From positions 1 through 36,818 of the IMG/VR virus record IMGVR_UViG_3300007231_000016: a DNA stretch of 36,818 bases; one strand, written 5' to 3'. The DNA is from a virus. Its lineage: Duplodnaviria; Caudoviricetes. The notes beneath the pieces are model-generated. The model had not been told where the DNA came from, did not search any database, and worked only from the letters and a program-made list of their open reading frames with translations. Position numbers and translations under genes: made by a program. Each line of letters begins with the position of its first letter. Position 1 is the first letter of the stretch. Positions 3,453 to 17,536 of the stretch are shown here, piece after piece.

Positions 3453-3835
3453 TGCCAATGTACTCATACCGATGCGTCCAGTGTTACACCATTTGGGATG
3501 TTAAGCACAAGATGCAAGACACTTACAGCGAAGCTTGTGAGAGTTGTGGTGGGGAACTAAACAAATATTATGGCAATGTGCAGATAGCTCCGTCGGTTAT
3601 GCCTACCAGATCTAACATTGATTTGGCGGCGACTAAAGCTAACGACGCAGCTAAAGATGTTGACATGGCTGCATACAAACGGTTAAGGAAAGAAGGGTTA
3701 CAGCCTCCTAGTATTAACGGTTCAGCGAAACTTGAGGCCCGTGCCGGTACTAAATGGGAAGTTAACGCAGGACATACTTTATCTCACGAAACTCGTAAGC
3801 AAGGGGAGAAGACTTTACAGGAGCACTTAGGATGA
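3452..3835 (+). CDS. FmdB-like zinc-ribbon protein
   Basis: MPMYSYRCVQC...CESCGG N-terminus. Confidence 0.75.
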   Translation: MPMYSYRCVQCYTIWDVKHKMQDTYSEACESCGGELNKYYGNVQIAPSVMPTRSNIDLAATKANDAAKDVDMAAYKRLRKEGLQPPSINGSAKLEARAGTKWEVNAGHTLSHETRKQGEKTLQEHLG

Positions 3836-6646: not shown

Positions 6647-7405
6647 ATGGCTAAGGTCCTATTCTACGATATAGAAACTGCACCTAACCTCGCATACGTG
6701 TGGGGGCAGTATGAACAGAACGTGGTGCAGCAATACCGGGAGTGGTACATCATGTGCTTCTCCTACAAGTGGGAAGGGCAGAAAGCAGCTAAAGTAATTG
6801 CCCTCCCTGACTTTGACTTGTATACGGAAGACCCAGAGGACGATCGGGAAGTTGTGCAAGCCTTATGGGATTTGTTTGACGAAGCTGATGTTGTGGTAGC
6901 TCACAACGGCGACAAGTTCGACATGAAGAAAGCTAACGCCCGGTTCATTGTGCATGACATGGGGCCACCTACGCCGGTGCATCAGATAGATACGTTGAAG
7001 GCTTCTAAACGGTACTTCAGGTTCAACAGCAACAAGCTTGACAACTTGGGTACGCATCTGAGTTTGGGCAACAAAGTAACAACTGGCGGGTTTCCTTTGT
7101 GGGAGGGGTGCATGAATGGTGATGAGAAGGCGTGGAACACGATGAAGAAGTACGCTCGCCAGGACGTTGACTTACTTGCAGATCTTTATTACAGGTTGCG
7201 TCCGTGGATGACAACTCATCCGAATCTTGCGTTGTTTGATGGTCGCCCTGATTCTTGTCCGACTTGTGGTCATGCTGATTTGATGCGTCGGGGGTATCGG
7301 TCTACGAAGGTTGCTCAGTACGCCCAGTTTCAATGCAAGAAATGTAAGGCGTATTGTCGTAAGCGTGTGAAGTCTGACGCTACGTCCCCTAACCTAGTGC
7401 CATGA
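6647..7405 (+). CDS. DnaQ/RNase H-like 3'-5' exonuclease with C-terminal zinc ribbon
   Basis: YDIET (ExoI), HNGDKFD (ExoII), YARQDV (ExoIII), CPTC...CKKC. Confidence 0.85.
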   Translation: MAKVLFYDIETAPNLAYVWGQYEQNVVQQYREWYIMCFSYKWEGQKAAKVIALPDFDLYTEDPEDDREVVQALWDLFDEADVVVAHNGDKFDMKKANARFIVHDMGPPTPVHQIDTLKASKRYFRFNSNKLDNLGTHLSLGNKVTTGGFPLWEGCMNGDEKAWNTMKKYARQDVDLLADLYYRLRPWMTTHPNLALFDGRPDSCPTCGHADLMRRGYRSTKVAQYAQFQCKKCKAYCRKRVKSDATSPNLVP

Positions 7406-8175
7406 GAGTATTTTCATTCGGGGGTGGAGTTCAATCTACTGCTGCTTTGGTGCTTGCAGCTCAAGGCAAAATTGATTATAAAACTTTTATTTTTGCTGAT
7501 ACAGGGGACGAACACCCAGAAACGTACGAGTATTTAGAGAACGTCCATAAACCTTTTGCGACGGAACATGGGTTAGAAATTTTGTGTATAAAAAAAACGT
7601 GGAAAGACGGATCACAATATTCAATTCTTGAGAACATTGACCGGTTGCCATCAGCAATTCCGATACCTGTGTATTTAGATTCTGGGAAACCTTGGCAACG
7701 ACAATGCACTGTAGATTGGAAAATTCATACGATAGCTAAAGAGTTGAAACGTCTTGGTGCTACTAAAGATAACCCGGCTCATGTCGGCATGGGGATTAGC
7801 GTAGACGAAATACAAAGAGCTAAACCTAGCACTATCCCTCACGAAACATTAGAGTTTCCTTTACTAGACTTGTTGTTACGAAGAGACGATTGTCATCGTA
7901 TTGTTAAAGAAGCGGGTTTAGAGAAAGCTCCTCGTTCTGCTTGTTTCTATTGTCCGTACCATTCAACAGAGTATTGGCGAGATTTGCGGGAAGAGCAGCC
8001 AGTATTATTTGATAGAGCATTAGAGTTAGAAGATACTTTAAGCGCACGAACCCAAAAAAGGTTTGGGACTAGTGTGCATCTTTGGCGTAAAGGATCGTTA
8101 AGAGATTTAGATGACCAACAGCGTTTTGATTTTGATGAACCTGATACTTGCGATTCTGGTCATTGCTTTACATAA
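7402..8175 (+). CDS. PAPS-reductase-like PP-loop protein
   Basis: SFGGGVQS PP-loop, ADTGDE, RQCT, SACFYCP and C-terminal CDSGHC. Confidence 0.75.
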   Translation: MRVFSFGGGVQSTAALVLAAQGKIDYKTFIFADTGDEHPETYEYLENVHKPFATEHGLEILCIKKTWKDGSQYSILENIDRLPSAIPIPVYLDSGKPWQRQCTVDWKIHTIAKELKRLGATKDNPAHVGMGISVDEIQRAKPSTIPHETLEFPLLDLLLRRDDCHRIVKEAGLEKAPRSACFYCPYHSTEYWRDLREEQPVLFDRALELEDTLSARTQKRFGTSVHLWRKGSLRDLDDQQRFDFDEPDTCDSGHCFT

Positions 8176-8184
8176 ATGTGTGGG

Positions 8185-8229
8185 TAAAAAGGTTTCTAGC
8201 CCAAGCGGTGTTGGTACCTGAGCTAGAAA
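8185..8229 (-). terminator. Intrinsic terminator of the minus-strand arm
   Basis: Minus strand TTTCTAGCTCAGG/CTTGGGCTAGAAA 13-bp stem (2 G-U pairs) followed by CCTTTTT, between convergent genes. Confidence 0.7.
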
Positions 8230-8300
8230 GAAATACCCCCAACTAAGAAAAGAAACAAACTTAGCTGAGGGGAGCGCCCAAACCACTACGAAAAGGCGCT
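8185..8300 (-). ncRNA. Candidate triple-hairpin small RNA / structured 3' UTR
   Basis: Three consecutive stems (8273-8300, 8236-8271, 8193-8229). Their mismatches become G-U pairs only on the minus strand. Confidence 0.45.
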
Positions 8301-8306
8301 ACATTT

Positions 8307-8612
8307 TTATGATACCATACGAGTAACAGTTCCGTCACTATTTTCTACCCATTCCACAGTTTTCGGTTGAACTTTCTCTGGCTCAGGAGCCACATACGAT
8401 ACACGTAACTGGTATTCGACTGCGTTAACAGTGAAAGCTTTACACTTGTTTAAAGCATCTATGATAGCCAGCTCAGAGTACCCGGCTATTAGAGCACGCT
8501 TAACGATTGCCTGCACCATTTTCACTGACCCCATTGGCTTAGGGTGCGCTTGATCCCAATATTGTTTAGTGGTTTCTTCCGCTTCTACGTCAGTGATGAA
8601 CTTGTCAGTCAC
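8307..8612 (-). CDS. Hypothetical protein
   Basis: 101-aa ORF overlapping the WhiB stop, last gene of the minus arm. Confidence 0.6.
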   Translation of the reverse strand: MTDKFITDVEAEETTKQYWDQAHPKPMGSVKMVQAIVKRALIAGYSELAIIDALNKCKAFTVNAVEYQLRVSYVAPEPEKVQPKTVEWVENSDGTVTRMVS

Positions 8613-8868
8613 CTTTGCCCAAGATTTTGATTGCTGCGGCAGGTCTAAATTCGCATTCTTTCATTACGTTCCCTCTTTCGTAGGCTGAATGGCCGCCCCA
8701 TGTTAACGACGGCATGTAGAAGTGGTTGAACCAGTCGCCTACACAGAGTGCGTACGCTAAGCAGTCTCGTTTAACTGTGCAGTGTTGGTTACAGAACGAA
8801 GGTTTGATGTCTCCGGCTGGTATGCCTCGGCACGCAGCTTTCTGGTACCACCACGGCGTTTCGCTCAT
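8605..8868 (-). CDS. whiB: WhiB-like Fe-S transcription regulator (divergent)
   Basis: W..KAAC...C-x3-C-x5-CLAYAL...TWGG.S..ER. Confidence 0.75.
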   Translation of the reverse strand: MSETPWWYQKAACRGIPAGDIKPSFCNQHCTVKRDCLAYALCVGDWFNHFYMPSLTWGGHSAYERGNVMKECEFRPAAAIKILGKGD

Positions 8869-9797
8869 TGCGTTAACACTTTGATAGCGTGATGTCCTTG
8901 TTGTGGTACGACTCCGTTGCCTAATAGTTTTAATAGGATGTTACGTTTCATCCCTGAGTTGCATACCCATCCGTGGGGTAGGCCCATCATCCATTCAACG
9001 AACCAGGGGTTTAGTTTGCCTTCGTCTACAGGTTTAGGCGCTGTTCTTCCCAATGTATTTTCCCATCTGGTGATGGCTGATCGGTATTGTCCCCAGGAAG
9101 TCTCGCTAACGCATTCTCTAGATTCTGTGGTTGGTCTAGTGGACGTTCCCAAATGTTCATGTTGCGTGCTTCTCCGTTCTGTGCCCGTGGTGTTGGCAAC
9201 AGACGAACCTCTATAGACAAACTCTTCCCGTGACCGTTGCCGTTGTTGTGCTGCTCCCGCTTCTCCATTATCCAATTCTCCCACCACTCCACAGTCTTGT
9301 CGTCCCCCATGTCGTTCACTACTGGTGTCGGTAGCAACACAAAACCATCTAGCTCTTTGATGTGGCGCTCCGACATCGGAAGCTCGGACAATTCCCCAGC
9401 GCGAGTCATACCCCATTTCGGTAAGTGTTGCAACGACGGAGGTTCCTCCGAGAGTAAGGATGCCTGAGACATTCTCCAACACAACTGTTCCGGGTCGAAG
9501 AATCCTAATGGCGTCCCCGATATACTCAAAGATTGCTCGGTCATCTTCTAATCCTTTACGGTACCCGGCTGTACTAAATGGTTGGCACGGGAACCCGGCA
9601 GTCACAATGTCTACTTCATCGTAGTCATGCGGGTTAGTTTTGGTTACGTCTGTGAAAGGTTTAGCTCCGAAATGGGAAGACATTAAATCTATGGCTGGCT
9701 TATATATTTCTGAGAACCATGAGGTCTTAGCACTATAGAACTGTTCTACTGCGAGGTCTAACCCTCCGTAACCTGAACAGAACGAACCTATCTTCAT
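8865..9797 (-). CDS. DNA (cytosine-5)-methyltransferase
   Basis: Motif I FCSGYGG, motif IV GFPCQ, motif VI LENV, motif VIII HQRAR, EWMMGLP, motif X LGNGVVPQ. Confidence 0.92.
   Translation of the reverse strand: MKIGSFCSGYGGLDLAVEQFYSAKTSWFSEIYKPAIDLMSSHFGAKPFTDVTKTNPHDYDEVDIVTAGFPCQPFSTAGYRKGLEDDRAIFEYIGDAIRILRPGTVVLENVSGILTLGGTSVVATLTEMGYDSRWGIVRASDVGAPHQRARWFCVATDTSSERHGGRQDCGVVGELDNGEAGAAQQRQRSREEFVYRGSSVANTTGTERRSTQHEHLGTSTRPTTESRECVSETSWGQYRSAITRWENTLGRTAPKPVDEGKLNPWFVEWMMGLPHGWVCNSGMKRNILLKLLGNGVVPQQGHHAIKVLTQ
9026..9544 (-). CDS. Nested alternative-frame ORF, putative second methyltransferase subunit
   Basis: 172 aa open in the +1 frame, AAAGGA RBS upstream, two LLPTP repeats, CWRMSQASLL...PKWGMTR.G motif. 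Confidence 0.6.
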   Translation of the reverse strand: MTEQSLSISGTPLGFFDPEQLCWRMSQASLLSEEPPSLQHLPKWGMTRAGELSELPMSERHIKELDGFVLLPTPVVNDMGDDKTVEWWENWIMEKREQHNNGNGHGKSLSIEVRLLPTPRAQNGEARNMNIWERPLDQPQNLENALARLPGDNTDQPSPDGKIHWEEQRLNL

Positions 9798-10425: not shown

Positions 10426-10584
10426 CTACACGTACGCCTCTCTGTAGAGCTTGAGTGCGTCACGGATAATATCGGATTGGCTTTTGTTGTTCATCACAGC
10501 AGCCGCCTTAATGTACTCCATCTCATGCTGATACAACCGGACGTTTATAGCAACTGATCGTTTATTGTTAGTGTCTATGTACAT
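10426..10584 (-). CDS. Ribbon-helix-helix (CopG/Arc-like) protein, 52 aa, absent from the ORF track
   Basis: MYIDTNNKRSVAINVRLYQHEMEYIKAAAVMNNKSQSDIIRDALKLYREAYV. TAATG coupling with SSB, fills the gap exactly. Confidence 0.8.
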   Translation of the reverse strand: MYIDTNNKRSVAINVRLYQHEMEYIKAAAVMNNKSQSDIIRDALKLYREAYV

Positions 10585-14227: not shown

Positions 14228-14553
14228 TAGAGATCTCTCCAGTCTACGTAGTCGTACGTATCCCCTACGTTCGGGTCTGCTTCTGACCACAGTGTCACAG
14301 CCTGCGTTACTTGGCATTCTGTCGAGTCACTGTCGTTCCGCTTGTGGCATGGGGCGCGCACTGTTGTAATGTTCACGTAGTCGCTAGTGGTAGCGAAACA
14401 CACAATCAGATTGTCATACTCTTCGCCCCAACTATTAACCAGTGCTTTAAGGTCGCTCACTCGCATAGGGCTATGGCCTGACCATCCTTCTTTTGCATCC
14501 TCACTCATCCAGTCTTGGTGGGTTTCGTAATTCGTATCACACTTTTTTTTCAT
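14227..14553 (-). CDS. Hypothetical protein
   Basis: 108 aa, ATGA coupling with the GP88-like gene. Confidence 0.6.
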   Translation of the reverse strand: MKKKCDTNYETHQDWMSEDAKEGWSGHSPMRVSDLKALVNSWGEEYDNLIVCFATTSDYVNITTVRAPCHKRNDSDSTECQVTQAVTLWSEADPNVGDTYDYVDWRDL

Positions 14554-15359
14554 GCTAATTCCCTCACAAATTTGCTATCAGTCCCGATAGCTTTACCTTT
14601 TGGACGTAACCCAATAATCGTTTTGGTTTCGTTTGATTGTGTCCGATCATCTGACAAGTCACCGTCCACAATTTTGTAACCTAACCAGGTCGCCGGAAAT
14701 GGCTCATTCTTACGTCGGTTAATAACCACCGCTACGCTACCGTAGGATTCAACCATGCCGGTAATCTGCTTAGGCGTGTGATTCTCATGAACGCTACCGA
14801 CCAACTTGTAACGATCGCTAGTGGTTCGCTTCTCGCTAGGGTATTTGGTGTAGTCGTAAGCATTAACACCTTTTAAGGTGAGCAAATCGGGACAAAAAAC
14901 TTCGACTCTTAAATCAGAAATAATATTAAATCTGAAATTGATTTTACCGTGCTTCTTAACTTCTTTACGTAGTTCATCGGCCAGTGCTCTAAGGAATAAG
15001 GCAGGATGGGCGGCCAGTAATTCGGTACGCCAATTTCTGGCAAGTTGCGATTTCGGATAACGTCCATTCCCTGCAGTGGCCAGACACAAATCACGGCATC
15101 CCTTAGAACTATGTCGGCAGGTGTTCCAGTTGCCAGAGGTACCGGCAGGCGCTAACGATAGGCCTACGCTATGCGTATCACTTTTTGCTAGTTTCGCGTT
15201 ATCGGTGTCTCTTGTTAACAATTCACCTTTCAAAGGTTGGAACCCTGCCATCTCTCGAGATTGGCACATTAAACGATTAAATTCTGCATTATCGTTTTTT
15301 GTGAGCGGCTCTAGGGTAAACGGTCCTAGTTTTTCTAGGTGCCTTGATAAATCTTGCAT
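14550..15359 (-). CDS. GP88-like (gene product 88, radical-SAM-related) protein
   Basis: LSLAPA...C-x6-C-x3-CL...G.G, RFNIISD, YDYTK, DGD.SD.R, GLRPKG. Confidence 0.7.
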   Translation of the reverse strand: MQDLSRHLEKLGPFTLEPLTKNDNAEFNRLMCQSREMAGFQPLKGELLTRDTDNAKLAKSDTHSVGLSLAPAGTSGNWNTCRHSSKGCRDLCLATAGNGRYPKSQLARNWRTELLAAHPALFLRALADELRKEVKKHGKINFRFNIISDLRVEVFCPDLLTLKGVNAYDYTKYPSEKRTTSDRYKLVGSVHENHTPKQITGMVESYGSVAVVINRRKNEPFPATWLGYKIVDGDLSDDRTQSNETKTIIGLRPKGKAIGTDSKFVRELA

Positions 15360-15367
15360 AACTCTCC

Positions 15368-15401
15368 TAGTGGTTTAGTAGTGGTTAATAATTTAAGTGT
15401 A
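15368..15401 (-). promoter_or_regulatory. Putative early promoter (-10 TACACT) and AACCACTAC leader motif
   Basis: Minus strand TACACT-9nt-AACCACTAC-TA-AACCACTA-GGAG, the same spacing as at 16681-16704. Confidence 0.5.
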
Positions 15402-15946: not shown

Positions 15947-16065
15947 TATTTCACTTTCTTTCTTTTAAGTTAGATAATAATTTTGTAGCGTCTCTGTCTG
16001 TAAATTACCGATCTTGCGTCCAGTTCCTACAACTTTGTAAGGCTTGAGACAGGCAAAAAATCTGC

Positions 16066-16263
16066 TTAATTAGGGTAAGGGTTAAACGGTTCAAGGTCTT
16101 TAAACAGCCACCCAACCCAACTGCTTGACTTATCCGGGTCAACTTTGTTAATGGCTAACGTCCCCCAACCTGTTCTAGAGATTTTACCAATAACGAAACA
16201 TTCCCCGAAGTATTTGCCAGGGTGATTAATTACCACAGTTTGTCCTACTTCAAACGTGCTCAT
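16066..16263 (-). CDS. Hypothetical small protein (SH3/KOW-like start)
   Basis: FEVGQTVVI...GKYFG, ATGA coupling. Confidence 0.55.
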   Translation of the reverse strand: MSTFEVGQTVVINHPGKYFGECFVIGKISRTGWGTLAINKVDPDKSSSWVGWLFKDLEPFNPYPN

Positions 16264-16664
16264 CGGACAAACAACCGGGTCTTAGTAAGATTAGTGAAAC
16301 TATCGCTAGCGATATAAACAGCCACACGACAAGAACTCACAGGCTCTAAAGTGTCGACATAATGGAACGTAGCGCCTAAATGATTTCGGTCCTTAGGATT
16401 GTAAGAAACCTCGCGATATCCGGCGATAGTATCGGCTATAGCCTTATCAGTAGCCATCTCACGATTTACAAGATTACCGTTAATCTTCGCGCATACCTTT
16501 CTAGGCCCGTCCTTAATCTGTGCATGGGCATTAGCACCGACCGTCAACTTAACATCCTGTAACACGATAATCTCGTTGTAAACGTGCTCTTGCTTATCAG
16601 AACCTGCCTCTTTTAACGATATACACTTCTTATGGATATTAGCGTGTGCAAATGACTTAGCCAT
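16260..16664 (-). CDS. Hypothetical early protein, first gene of the minus arm
   Basis: GAAAGG RBS before ATG 16664. NIHKKCISL...VSYNP pattern. Confidence 0.65.
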   Translation of the reverse strand: MAKSFAHANIHKKCISLKEAGSDKQEHVYNEIIVLQDVKLTVGANAHAQIKDGPRKVCAKINGNLVNREMATDKAIADTIAGYREVSYNPKDRNHLGATFHYVDTLEPVSSCRVAVYIASDSFTNLTKTRLFVR

Positions 16665-16680
16665 AATTGGCCTTTCTTTT

Positions 16681-16727
16681 GTAGTGGTTACACCATTAAA
16701 ATTACAGTACTCAAAACTCAAAAGCAA
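16681..16727 (-). promoter_or_regulatory. Sigma70/SigA-like early promoter plus AACCACTAC leader motif
   Basis: Minus strand TTGCTT-17bp-TAATTT-9nt-AACCACTAC. Confidence 0.6.
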
Positions 16728-17536
16728 TTCAGAAACACCTATTTAGTACGAAACTTCACTAGTCTTCTAGCGTTTTGCTAGGCACCCTATTTATTACTAA
16801 TTAAGGGTACGGAATCTAATTGAGCTTAGATTTTTGCAGCAACCTCGAACCCGGTACTCTGCCGAGACGGGTACCCGCATATACACTGTTTATCGGTGTT
16901 TTAGCTAGTTTGGTTCAATGGTTTGGGTTGTTTGTGTAGTGGTTTTTTGAGGTGTTTTGTGGGTGTGTTGTTTGGTGTTGTGGGTTTGTTGTGGGTGGGG
17001 GGATTTTTTGTGACGTATTTGGTGGGTTGTTGGAGTAGGTTAGCCCCCCCCCTCTGGGGAGGAACTTACATTACGGTTGGCGTATTCGGAGCCGTGCCGT
17101 CGTTGTTAGCCAACAAGGGATTAGTTTGTTGGAAGGCCGGTGTGTAAGGTAGAGTGTTGTGTTGTGACTGCCCAGGCTTCCCATTACCAGTCGTTCTACT
17201 TTTTGGGATATTTTTTGAACGCCTATGCAAGATTTGTTCGTAGGCGTTGTTGACTGGTATCCGTTTGACGGGCTACTCCCCCTACCGTCGATAGGTTCGG
17301 GGGGCGGTTTCTCACCGTGCAACCCTATTCTCCCTTGGGTTAGGGCCGATCTTTCTCGGTGTCGTGGTTCTTAATGCTACTATACCCTTTTTGTTTGTGG
17401 GTGACTAGCTGTGTGAACGGTTTTTTAAAGTTTTATGTTGGGGCACGTTTTCCACAGGTACCATATTAGGAGTATTAGGGATGCGGCTACTAGTAGCCAT
17501 GTTATGGTTACGATTATGTTGCCGAACCACAAGGTG
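16728..17536. other. Large non-coding control region (candidate origin, packaging or terminus region)
   Basis: About 800 bp without a credible CDS between the arms, with short palindromes and an extreme G/T-skewed tract. Confidence 0.5.

Follow-up and report, generated by a model that had tools for sequence, protein, structure and literature searches.

Within a linear virus record of 36.8 kb (36,818 nucleotides, ∼80% complete; referred to as the window here), we identified a minus-strand hairpin element located directly after the stop codon of the last gene of the early/replication arm. The loop of its first hairpin is invariant among relatives, lies behind a promoter-like motif, and is complementary to a short tag that precedes the start codons of unrelated early genes and is missing from the late genes. 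We propose, with a probability of roughly 55%, that this element encodes a promoter-driven, C4-like RNA that would act in trans as an antisense against a class of early messages and shut them off after a delay. Comparison with relatives supports one part of the original prediction, namely, that loop 1 is a sequence-specific antisense to early leaders, but not the part assigned to loop 2, and the proposed timer is doubtful given a conserved extended -10 motif.

The early/replication arm occupies the minus strand from ∼17.5 kb down to position 8307, with small early genes first, followed by genes for a Cas4-like nuclease, Erf, SSB, RusA, a methylase, and a WhiB-like protein. The plus strand encodes terminase, capsid, tail, and lysis genes and converges on the minus-strand arm at position 8175. 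Annotated phages gave no DNA match to the window, and a Cas4 query returned a near copy only. The sequence suggests an actinobacterial host, because the early arm contains L5 gp82-like and GP88 genes and WhiB scored above the cutoff in proteins of all five relatives (the window's own protein fell below it, with an E value of 0.015). A genome scan aimed at the host matched only two MAG contigs, which bear unrelated labels, and we name no host from them. No integrase was detected in any of the five records searched, four of which are ∼80% complete. Among near-identical strains, two slots are swapped, one after the exonuclease (6647-8175 in the window, with a PAPS-reductase-like gene) and the methylase slot (8865-9797). 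The window also contains a CA-rich low-complexity tract (16886-17060, minus strand), kept in relatives and ending in a conserved 11-mer (16886-16896), which may mark a genome end or the packaging region.

Folding of 8300..8185 on the minus strand yielded the three stems of the original prediction at -47.6 kcal/mol (z -6.43), a stability that none of 200 shuffles attained. The plus-strand fold (8170-8310) reached -36.6 kcal/mol (z -2.27), with 3/200 shuffles as stable. The earlier assignment of the strand from G-U pairs also holds, since these favor the minus strand in the window and in 9 of 10 distinct sequences from relatives, L125 being about equal on both strands. According to structure prediction, loop 1 and the tags are largely single stranded. 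A GC-rich stem followed by a U-rich tract, as in intrinsic terminators, is present at hairpin 2 or 3, and a terminator scan with a loop limit of 8 nt listed neither. Homology to other strains breaks exactly at position 8184, the end of hairpin 3. We also considered hairpin 1 as a ribosome-binding site for the late strand and rejected this, as it leads to an open reading frame of 5 codons in the window and to no start in L124. The features discussed here are collected in Table 1.

Table 1. Coordinates of the hairpin element, its predicted targets, and associated features (window positions unless a locus is named).
Feature	Position	Strand	Remarks
Predicted small RNA	8185..8302	-	∼75 nt if the end follows hairpin 2, ∼118 nt if it follows hairpin 3; predicted ends
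Hairpin 1	8273..8300	-	Loop 8278-8295 with invariant 15-nt core, antisense to early leader tag and adjoining ribosome-binding site
Hairpin 2	8236..8271	-	GC-rich covarying stem, variable loop 8248-8259, then U-rich tract 8226-8235; terminator-like
Hairpin 3	8185..8229	-	Stem-loop 8193-8229, U tail 8185-8192; closest relatives only; homology to other strains ends right behind
Predicted extended -10 promoter element	8309..8317	-	TGn-TAnnnT; overlaps last codons of gene 8307..8612
Last gene of early/replication arm	8307..8612	-	No family; anchor for fetching relatives
Predicted target gene, mycobacteriophage L5 gp82-like	16260..16664	-	PF25735, E 3e-9
Predicted target gene, GP88 family	14550..15359	-	PF17338, E 2e-21
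Predicted target 1	16676..16689	-	Leader tag and A-rich start of ribosome-binding site of gene 16664; 14 pairs, one bulge, -16.4 kcal/mol, rank 2 of 48
Predicted target 2	15362..15377	-	Second tag copy and GGAGAG ribosome-binding site of gene 15359; 16 pairs, one bulge, -21.1 kcal/mol, rank 1 of 48
First tag copy in 15359 leader	15378..15386	-	∼5-10 nt after -10-like hexamer (15396-15401)
Fourth exact tag copy	16936..16945	-	CA-rich noncoding tract, 281 nt from next start; missed in the original prediction
Loop 2 match in 15946 leader	15955..15966	-	11/12 positions; present, not above chance
tRNA-like units	L128:1405-1440, 1990-2028; L124:4340-4380; L125:30-70, 458-498, 985-1025; L126:780-820		Between early cassettes

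An alignment of the last gene fetched 18 metagenome loci (L114 being the window's own contig) and three viral loci. The 15-nt core of loop 1 is identical at 15/15 positions in all 18 loci found via this neighbor protein, one of them being the window's own contig, and it is unchanged in 20 of 20 loci representing 10 distinct sequences. A separate scan with the loop pattern gave seven matches; we discarded L109, L111, and L112 as chance because the hairpin is missing there, and L107, having been retrieved with the loop pattern, is no independent sign of loop invariance. The stem of hairpin 1 is nearly invariant, with one G-U change and a different, longer stem only in L126, L086, and L107, so that covariation lends it little support, and RNAalifold on a MAFFT alignment did not recover it. 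Hairpin 2 covaries, as both partners are changed in 6 of its 12 pairs, 95.8% of cells are paired, and 0/500 shuffles reach its score (8 sequences), while its loop changes freely or is replaced between strains. In L119, the changed loop 2 (L119:10340-10378) matches, over 8 nt, a leader unique to that genome (L119:about 3530-3557), a single case that could be chance. Hairpin 3 is confined to close strains; it is absent in the L124-L131 group and has a changed loop in L123, and its inclusion in the conserved core is not supported.

Within the window, AACCACTAC occurs exactly at 16681-16689 and 15378-15386, and a further 9-nt match to loop 1 at 15368-15376 abuts GGAG, in agreement with the earlier observation of the 9-mer upstream of the ribosome-binding sites of two early genes. 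With one mismatch allowed, there are 16 matches to the 9-mer against 9.4 expected, a number reached in 2/100 shuffles. The fourth exact copy, at 16936, is probably not a target. When loop 1 was paired with the 48 start regions of the window, the leaders of genes 15359 and 16664 took the first two ranks by energy. Among 1,000 shuffled loops, 23 reach the best leader energy, and 2 place both top ranks within the first four early leaders. Genome-wide, excluding self sites, the 15359 leader is still the best, and the 16664 leader is only tied for 10th-11th. The heptamer ACCACTA has 7 occurrences in the early arm (9.8 kb) and none on the late coding strand (26.8 kb).

The claim that the early leaders rank above random targets thus stands for loop 1 and falls for the other two loops. 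Pairing of loop 2 with the 15946 and 16664 leaders had been predicted, and the matches do exist (the second being 8 nt at 16673-16680), but their specificity is not supported: the best energy is matched by 517/1000 shuffled loops, the 15946 leader comes 7th of 48, and the loop differs in strains whose neighbor protein is 97 to 100% identical. The complement of loop 2, AAAAGAAA, occurs 4 times in the early arm and 3 times in late DNA. Loop 3 is likewise at chance level (867/1000 shuffles). Given these energies and the variation between strains, we rejected loops 2 and 3 as specific antisense loops.

The tag is distributed in a strand- and position-specific manner in relatives with hairpin 1, a group that comprises about two sub-lineages with many homologous leaders, so that the following tag counts overstate independence. 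A count of loop-1-complementary 8-mers over nine early regions from the group (45 kb) gave 32 on the coding strand versus 2 on the opposite one; start regions, which account for 17% of the sequence, hold 23 of the 32. The corresponding numbers for 23 regions (172 kb) of phages without hairpin 1 are 33 versus 15, with 13 in start regions. Matches that contain CCACTA and lie at most 35 nt upstream of a start number 18 in the early regions of nine relatives versus 0 in the 23 regions without hairpin 1, as counted from a listing of loop-complementary matches with heuristically called starts. The tag stands 9 to 36 nt before the start codon, sometimes twice, either before the ribosome-binding site or between it and the ATG, and with or without an upstream -10 motif. 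The genes behind it are unrelated (gp82-like, GP88, ArdC-like, and several without a family). The first early genes of L124 and L128 show matches of 11 and 12 nt that include the ribosome-binding site; the partial arms of L118 and L126, which do not contain the arm start, have no upstream tag match. Given that several tagged starts have no -10 motif and that the tag may fall between ribosome-binding site and ATG, it tracks start codons and not promoters.

The same regions contain further elements. tRNA-like units, consisting of a T-arm with GGTTCGATTCC, a D-loop-like stretch, and a short closing stem, are located just before tagged leaders and might be RNase P or RNase Z cutting signals; in the window, there is only a partial match, at 16845-16851. 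Clustered DnaA-box-like 9-mers occur at L124:2790-2885 and L004:about 1230-1480. This cluster, which is absent from the window, lies between the CA-rich tract and the first early gene (ArdC-like antirestriction) and is a possible host-primed origin. An inverted tag copy (L124:3085-3095, L004:1230) is found in a GT-rich stretch ∼65 nt upstream of the tag of the first early leader.

These distributions bear on two readings in which loop 1 and the tag do not form a regulatory pair. In the first, the hairpins are terminators, and the match is a product of chance or the remnant of an inverted leader duplication. The pairings are indeed short, and loops 2 and 3 behave as chance predicts, but this would not account for 15/15 invariant loop bases beside a gene that is only 60-65% identical between two sub-lineages, for the promoter motif, or for the strand and position bias of the tag; the invariance of the loop largely refutes this reading, which we consider very improbable. 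In the second, a phage protein would bind the tag as an asymmetric DNA site, of which hairpin 1 contains one more example, and hairpins 2 and 3 would only terminate transcription between the converging arms. The model for this would be the stoperators of L5/D29, described in the available text of PMC5712189 as asymmetric 13-bp repressor sites oriented with transcription across the genomes of these related-looking actinophages. The window resembles L5/D29 in its oriented asymmetric repeat and in an early arm with gp82- and gp88-like genes, and it encodes an RHH protein at 10426..10584 in addition to the WhiB-like one at 8605..8868. All leader copies share one direction relative to transcription, several of them at +1 to +10 of predicted promoters, and there are additional copies within the CA-rich tract and, in L124 and L004, in inverted orientation ahead of the first gene. 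However, the motif is confined to early start regions instead of being spread over both arms and is mirrored in an RNA loop, where the copy is inverted, longer (15 nt, extending into the complement of the ribosome-binding site), and placed just after a promoter motif. Together with the association of the tag with start codons, its absence from late genes, and the lack of an integrase in the five records searched, this makes a DNA site quite improbable as the function of the tag.

Our favored reading differs from the original prediction in the origin of the RNA. An extended -10 motif is located 14 to 17 nt before the loop core in 20/20 loci, against a background of 64 motifs per 73,636 nt. It occurs there as five different nonamers, in which the three middle bases are free and TA and T are fixed. 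Because the motif overlaps coding sequence, selection on the protein could explain part of its conservation, although the residues encoded there differ between groups. Because this conserved motif directly precedes hairpin 1, the small RNA probably has its own promoter, with a predicted start near G8302 judging from the -10 spacing, and need not wait for transcription of the arm. The original prediction had the same pairing act as a timer, with the RNA being the processed 3' end of the arm transcript (or pairing within one long message) and thus acting once the arm is transcribed. This would fit an element that adjoins the stop codon of the last gene and ends in terminator-like stems, and it would fit the outer relatives, of which 11/17 loci have a hairpin here without the extended -10 and only 6/17 have the motif. 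Against it stands the correctly spaced motif in every one of the 20 loci, and we regard the timer as unlikely.

Most outer relatives contain a strong hairpin with a pyrimidine-rich loop after the homolog of the last gene. We picked these hairpins and loops by hand and tested both strands. Loop 1 has 2 to 5 leader matches in five genomes of its own group and at most 1 in 16 others (both strands), the L134 loop has 6 in its own genome and at most 1 in 20 others, and the L135 loop has 2 of its own and at most 1 elsewhere. The G002 loop has one 10-nt match of its own, at the ribosome-binding site of the first gene of an inverted early cassette, and up to 3 matches elsewhere; the real match of the L142 loop is 7 nt long, the G013 loop ties with other genomes, and the G016-group loop is a generic anti-Shine-Dalgarno (anti-SD) sequence that matches L134 and L136 as often as its own genome. 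The G001 loop has no 8-mer match in its own genome. When judged by energy, the outer loops show no preference for their own leaders. Loop-leader matching is thus clear in three lineages, weak or generic in four, and absent in one, which is not a count of independent events, since the hairpins were hand-picked and the trees are mosaic. The latter applies to trees of Erf, RusA, and the exonuclease, in which the hairpin-1 group is not resolved as one clade against unlabeled rows. Loop 1 is invariant across its group, so that no base-by-base compensation with the tag is visible; other loop-leader pairs are found in some other lineages. In G001, G002, and L142, the first early genes lie on the opposite strand as an inverted cassette (L216:4900-6800, L217:6000-7200, L142:170-1560), and the G001 terminase is nevertheless 98% identical to that of the window.

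A large sister group has AAAGGAGA as the complement of its loop; in seven of its genomes, 27/28 early-arm copies stand ahead of a start, compared with 0/1 across 110 kb of late DNA. This loop resembles an anti-SD sequence, and it matches other genomes too. As observed after the last-gene homolog in L235, L246, L243, L094, and L237, the RNA of this group forms a three-way junction with the anti-SD-like loop, and behind it lie another extended -10-like motif and two genes. AAAGGAGA is used by the early genes and avoided by the late ones. Such a generic loop could pair with host messages as well, which is in line with a reading in which the RNA is real, loop 1 is conserved for a host RNA or protein partner, and the A/C-rich tag enhances translation of early genes, its match to the loop being secondary. 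The targets being unstructured A/C-rich leaders would agree with an enhancer. An enhancer should, however, not be confined to the one group in which tag and loop 1 co-occur (18 versus 0), and we consider a host partner improbable.

Known phage and bacterial RNAs share individual traits with the element. The C4 antisense RNA of P1/P7 is a small RNA with three stem-loops, the loops of which bind a message of the same phage in trans; one segment masks the ribosome-binding site, another confers specificity, and loop and target vary from phage to phage (PMC5320573). The predicted pairing of loop 1 with the phage's own messages over the ribosome-binding site is similar. Unlike in C4, the hairpins stand side by side with no cloverleaf closed by a P1 stem, one working loop replaces two antisense loops, and in place of one antirepressor operon, numerous unrelated early leaders are the predicted targets (those in the window lie 7.1 and 8.4 kb upstream). 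C4 is furthermore released by RNase P processing, whereas the RNA proposed here has a predicted promoter of its own, in a phage in which no integrase was found. The CI RNA of satellite phage P4 is complementary to short stretches of the early leader of its own phage; it is encoded between these targets, within a single transcript, and brings about immunity through termination (PMC4825925). The element shares with it the complementarity to short sites in early leaders of its own phage, but it lies far from these sites, which cover start regions. Cuckoo/CcsR RNAs carry the loop motif CCUCCUCCC in each of 2 to 4 adjacent hairpins with variable stems and are aimed at ribosome-binding sites (PMC4615179, in the part available). 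Adjacent hairpins and variable stems are common to these RNAs, to small RNAs with C-rich loops such as RNAIII, and to the element, the closest likeness being the sister-group hairpins with CU-rich loops. Here, however, CCUCCUCCC is absent, the loops are unlike one another, the RNA is phage encoded, and loop 1 would read a phage-specific tag and not only the SD sequence. The element would thus work like C4 and P4 CI and is built like the cuckoo RNAs, and it is a member of none of these families. An Rfam search of the window (E up to 1) gave only one unrelated weak match (2854-2951), and eight relatives gave no match at the gathering score. Our literature search met no description of this arrangement, although subscription journals and supplementary motif tables of RNA-discovery surveys may hold the motif. 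In the portion available of a 2025 review, phage small RNAs act on single phage genes or host genes and none has this design (PMC12197685), and the available text of the Minerva preprint held nothing bearing on it. Abundant small RNAs of unknown function have been reported from L5/D29 Pleft (PMC5712189, available text).

In the mechanism that we favor, a small RNA would be transcribed from 8185-8300, starting at its own extended -10 promoter and ending at hairpin 2 or 3 with the U tract as the putative terminator. In several early messages of the same phage, its invariant loop 1 would pair with the tag AACCACUA/C together with the ribosome-binding site next to it, block ribosome loading, and so turn off translation. 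This could provide a delayed brake, in which early messages are translated at once, the stable RNA accumulates, and silencing follows. In a possible variant, the same pairing would cause premature termination on the nascent leader, as with the P4 CI RNA. Since each cassette carries the tag, one loop could silence the whole interchangeable set of early cassettes.

To our knowledge, early-gene shut-off in lytic phages without a known repressor is poorly known. A broader picture, which we hold tentatively and at slightly less than even odds, is that of an apparently lytic, actinophage-like lineage with a barcode system, where each early cassette is tagged and one promoter-driven small RNA shuts the class off. 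Sister lineages would have rekeyed loop and tag together, and in the sister group with the anti-SD-like loop, late genes would escape by avoiding that type of ribosome-binding site. If true, one loop directed against a common tag would regulate a set of genes whose membership differs between strains, and in uncultured phages the pairing of loop and tag would make it possible to recognize early genes and to judge regulatory compatibility.
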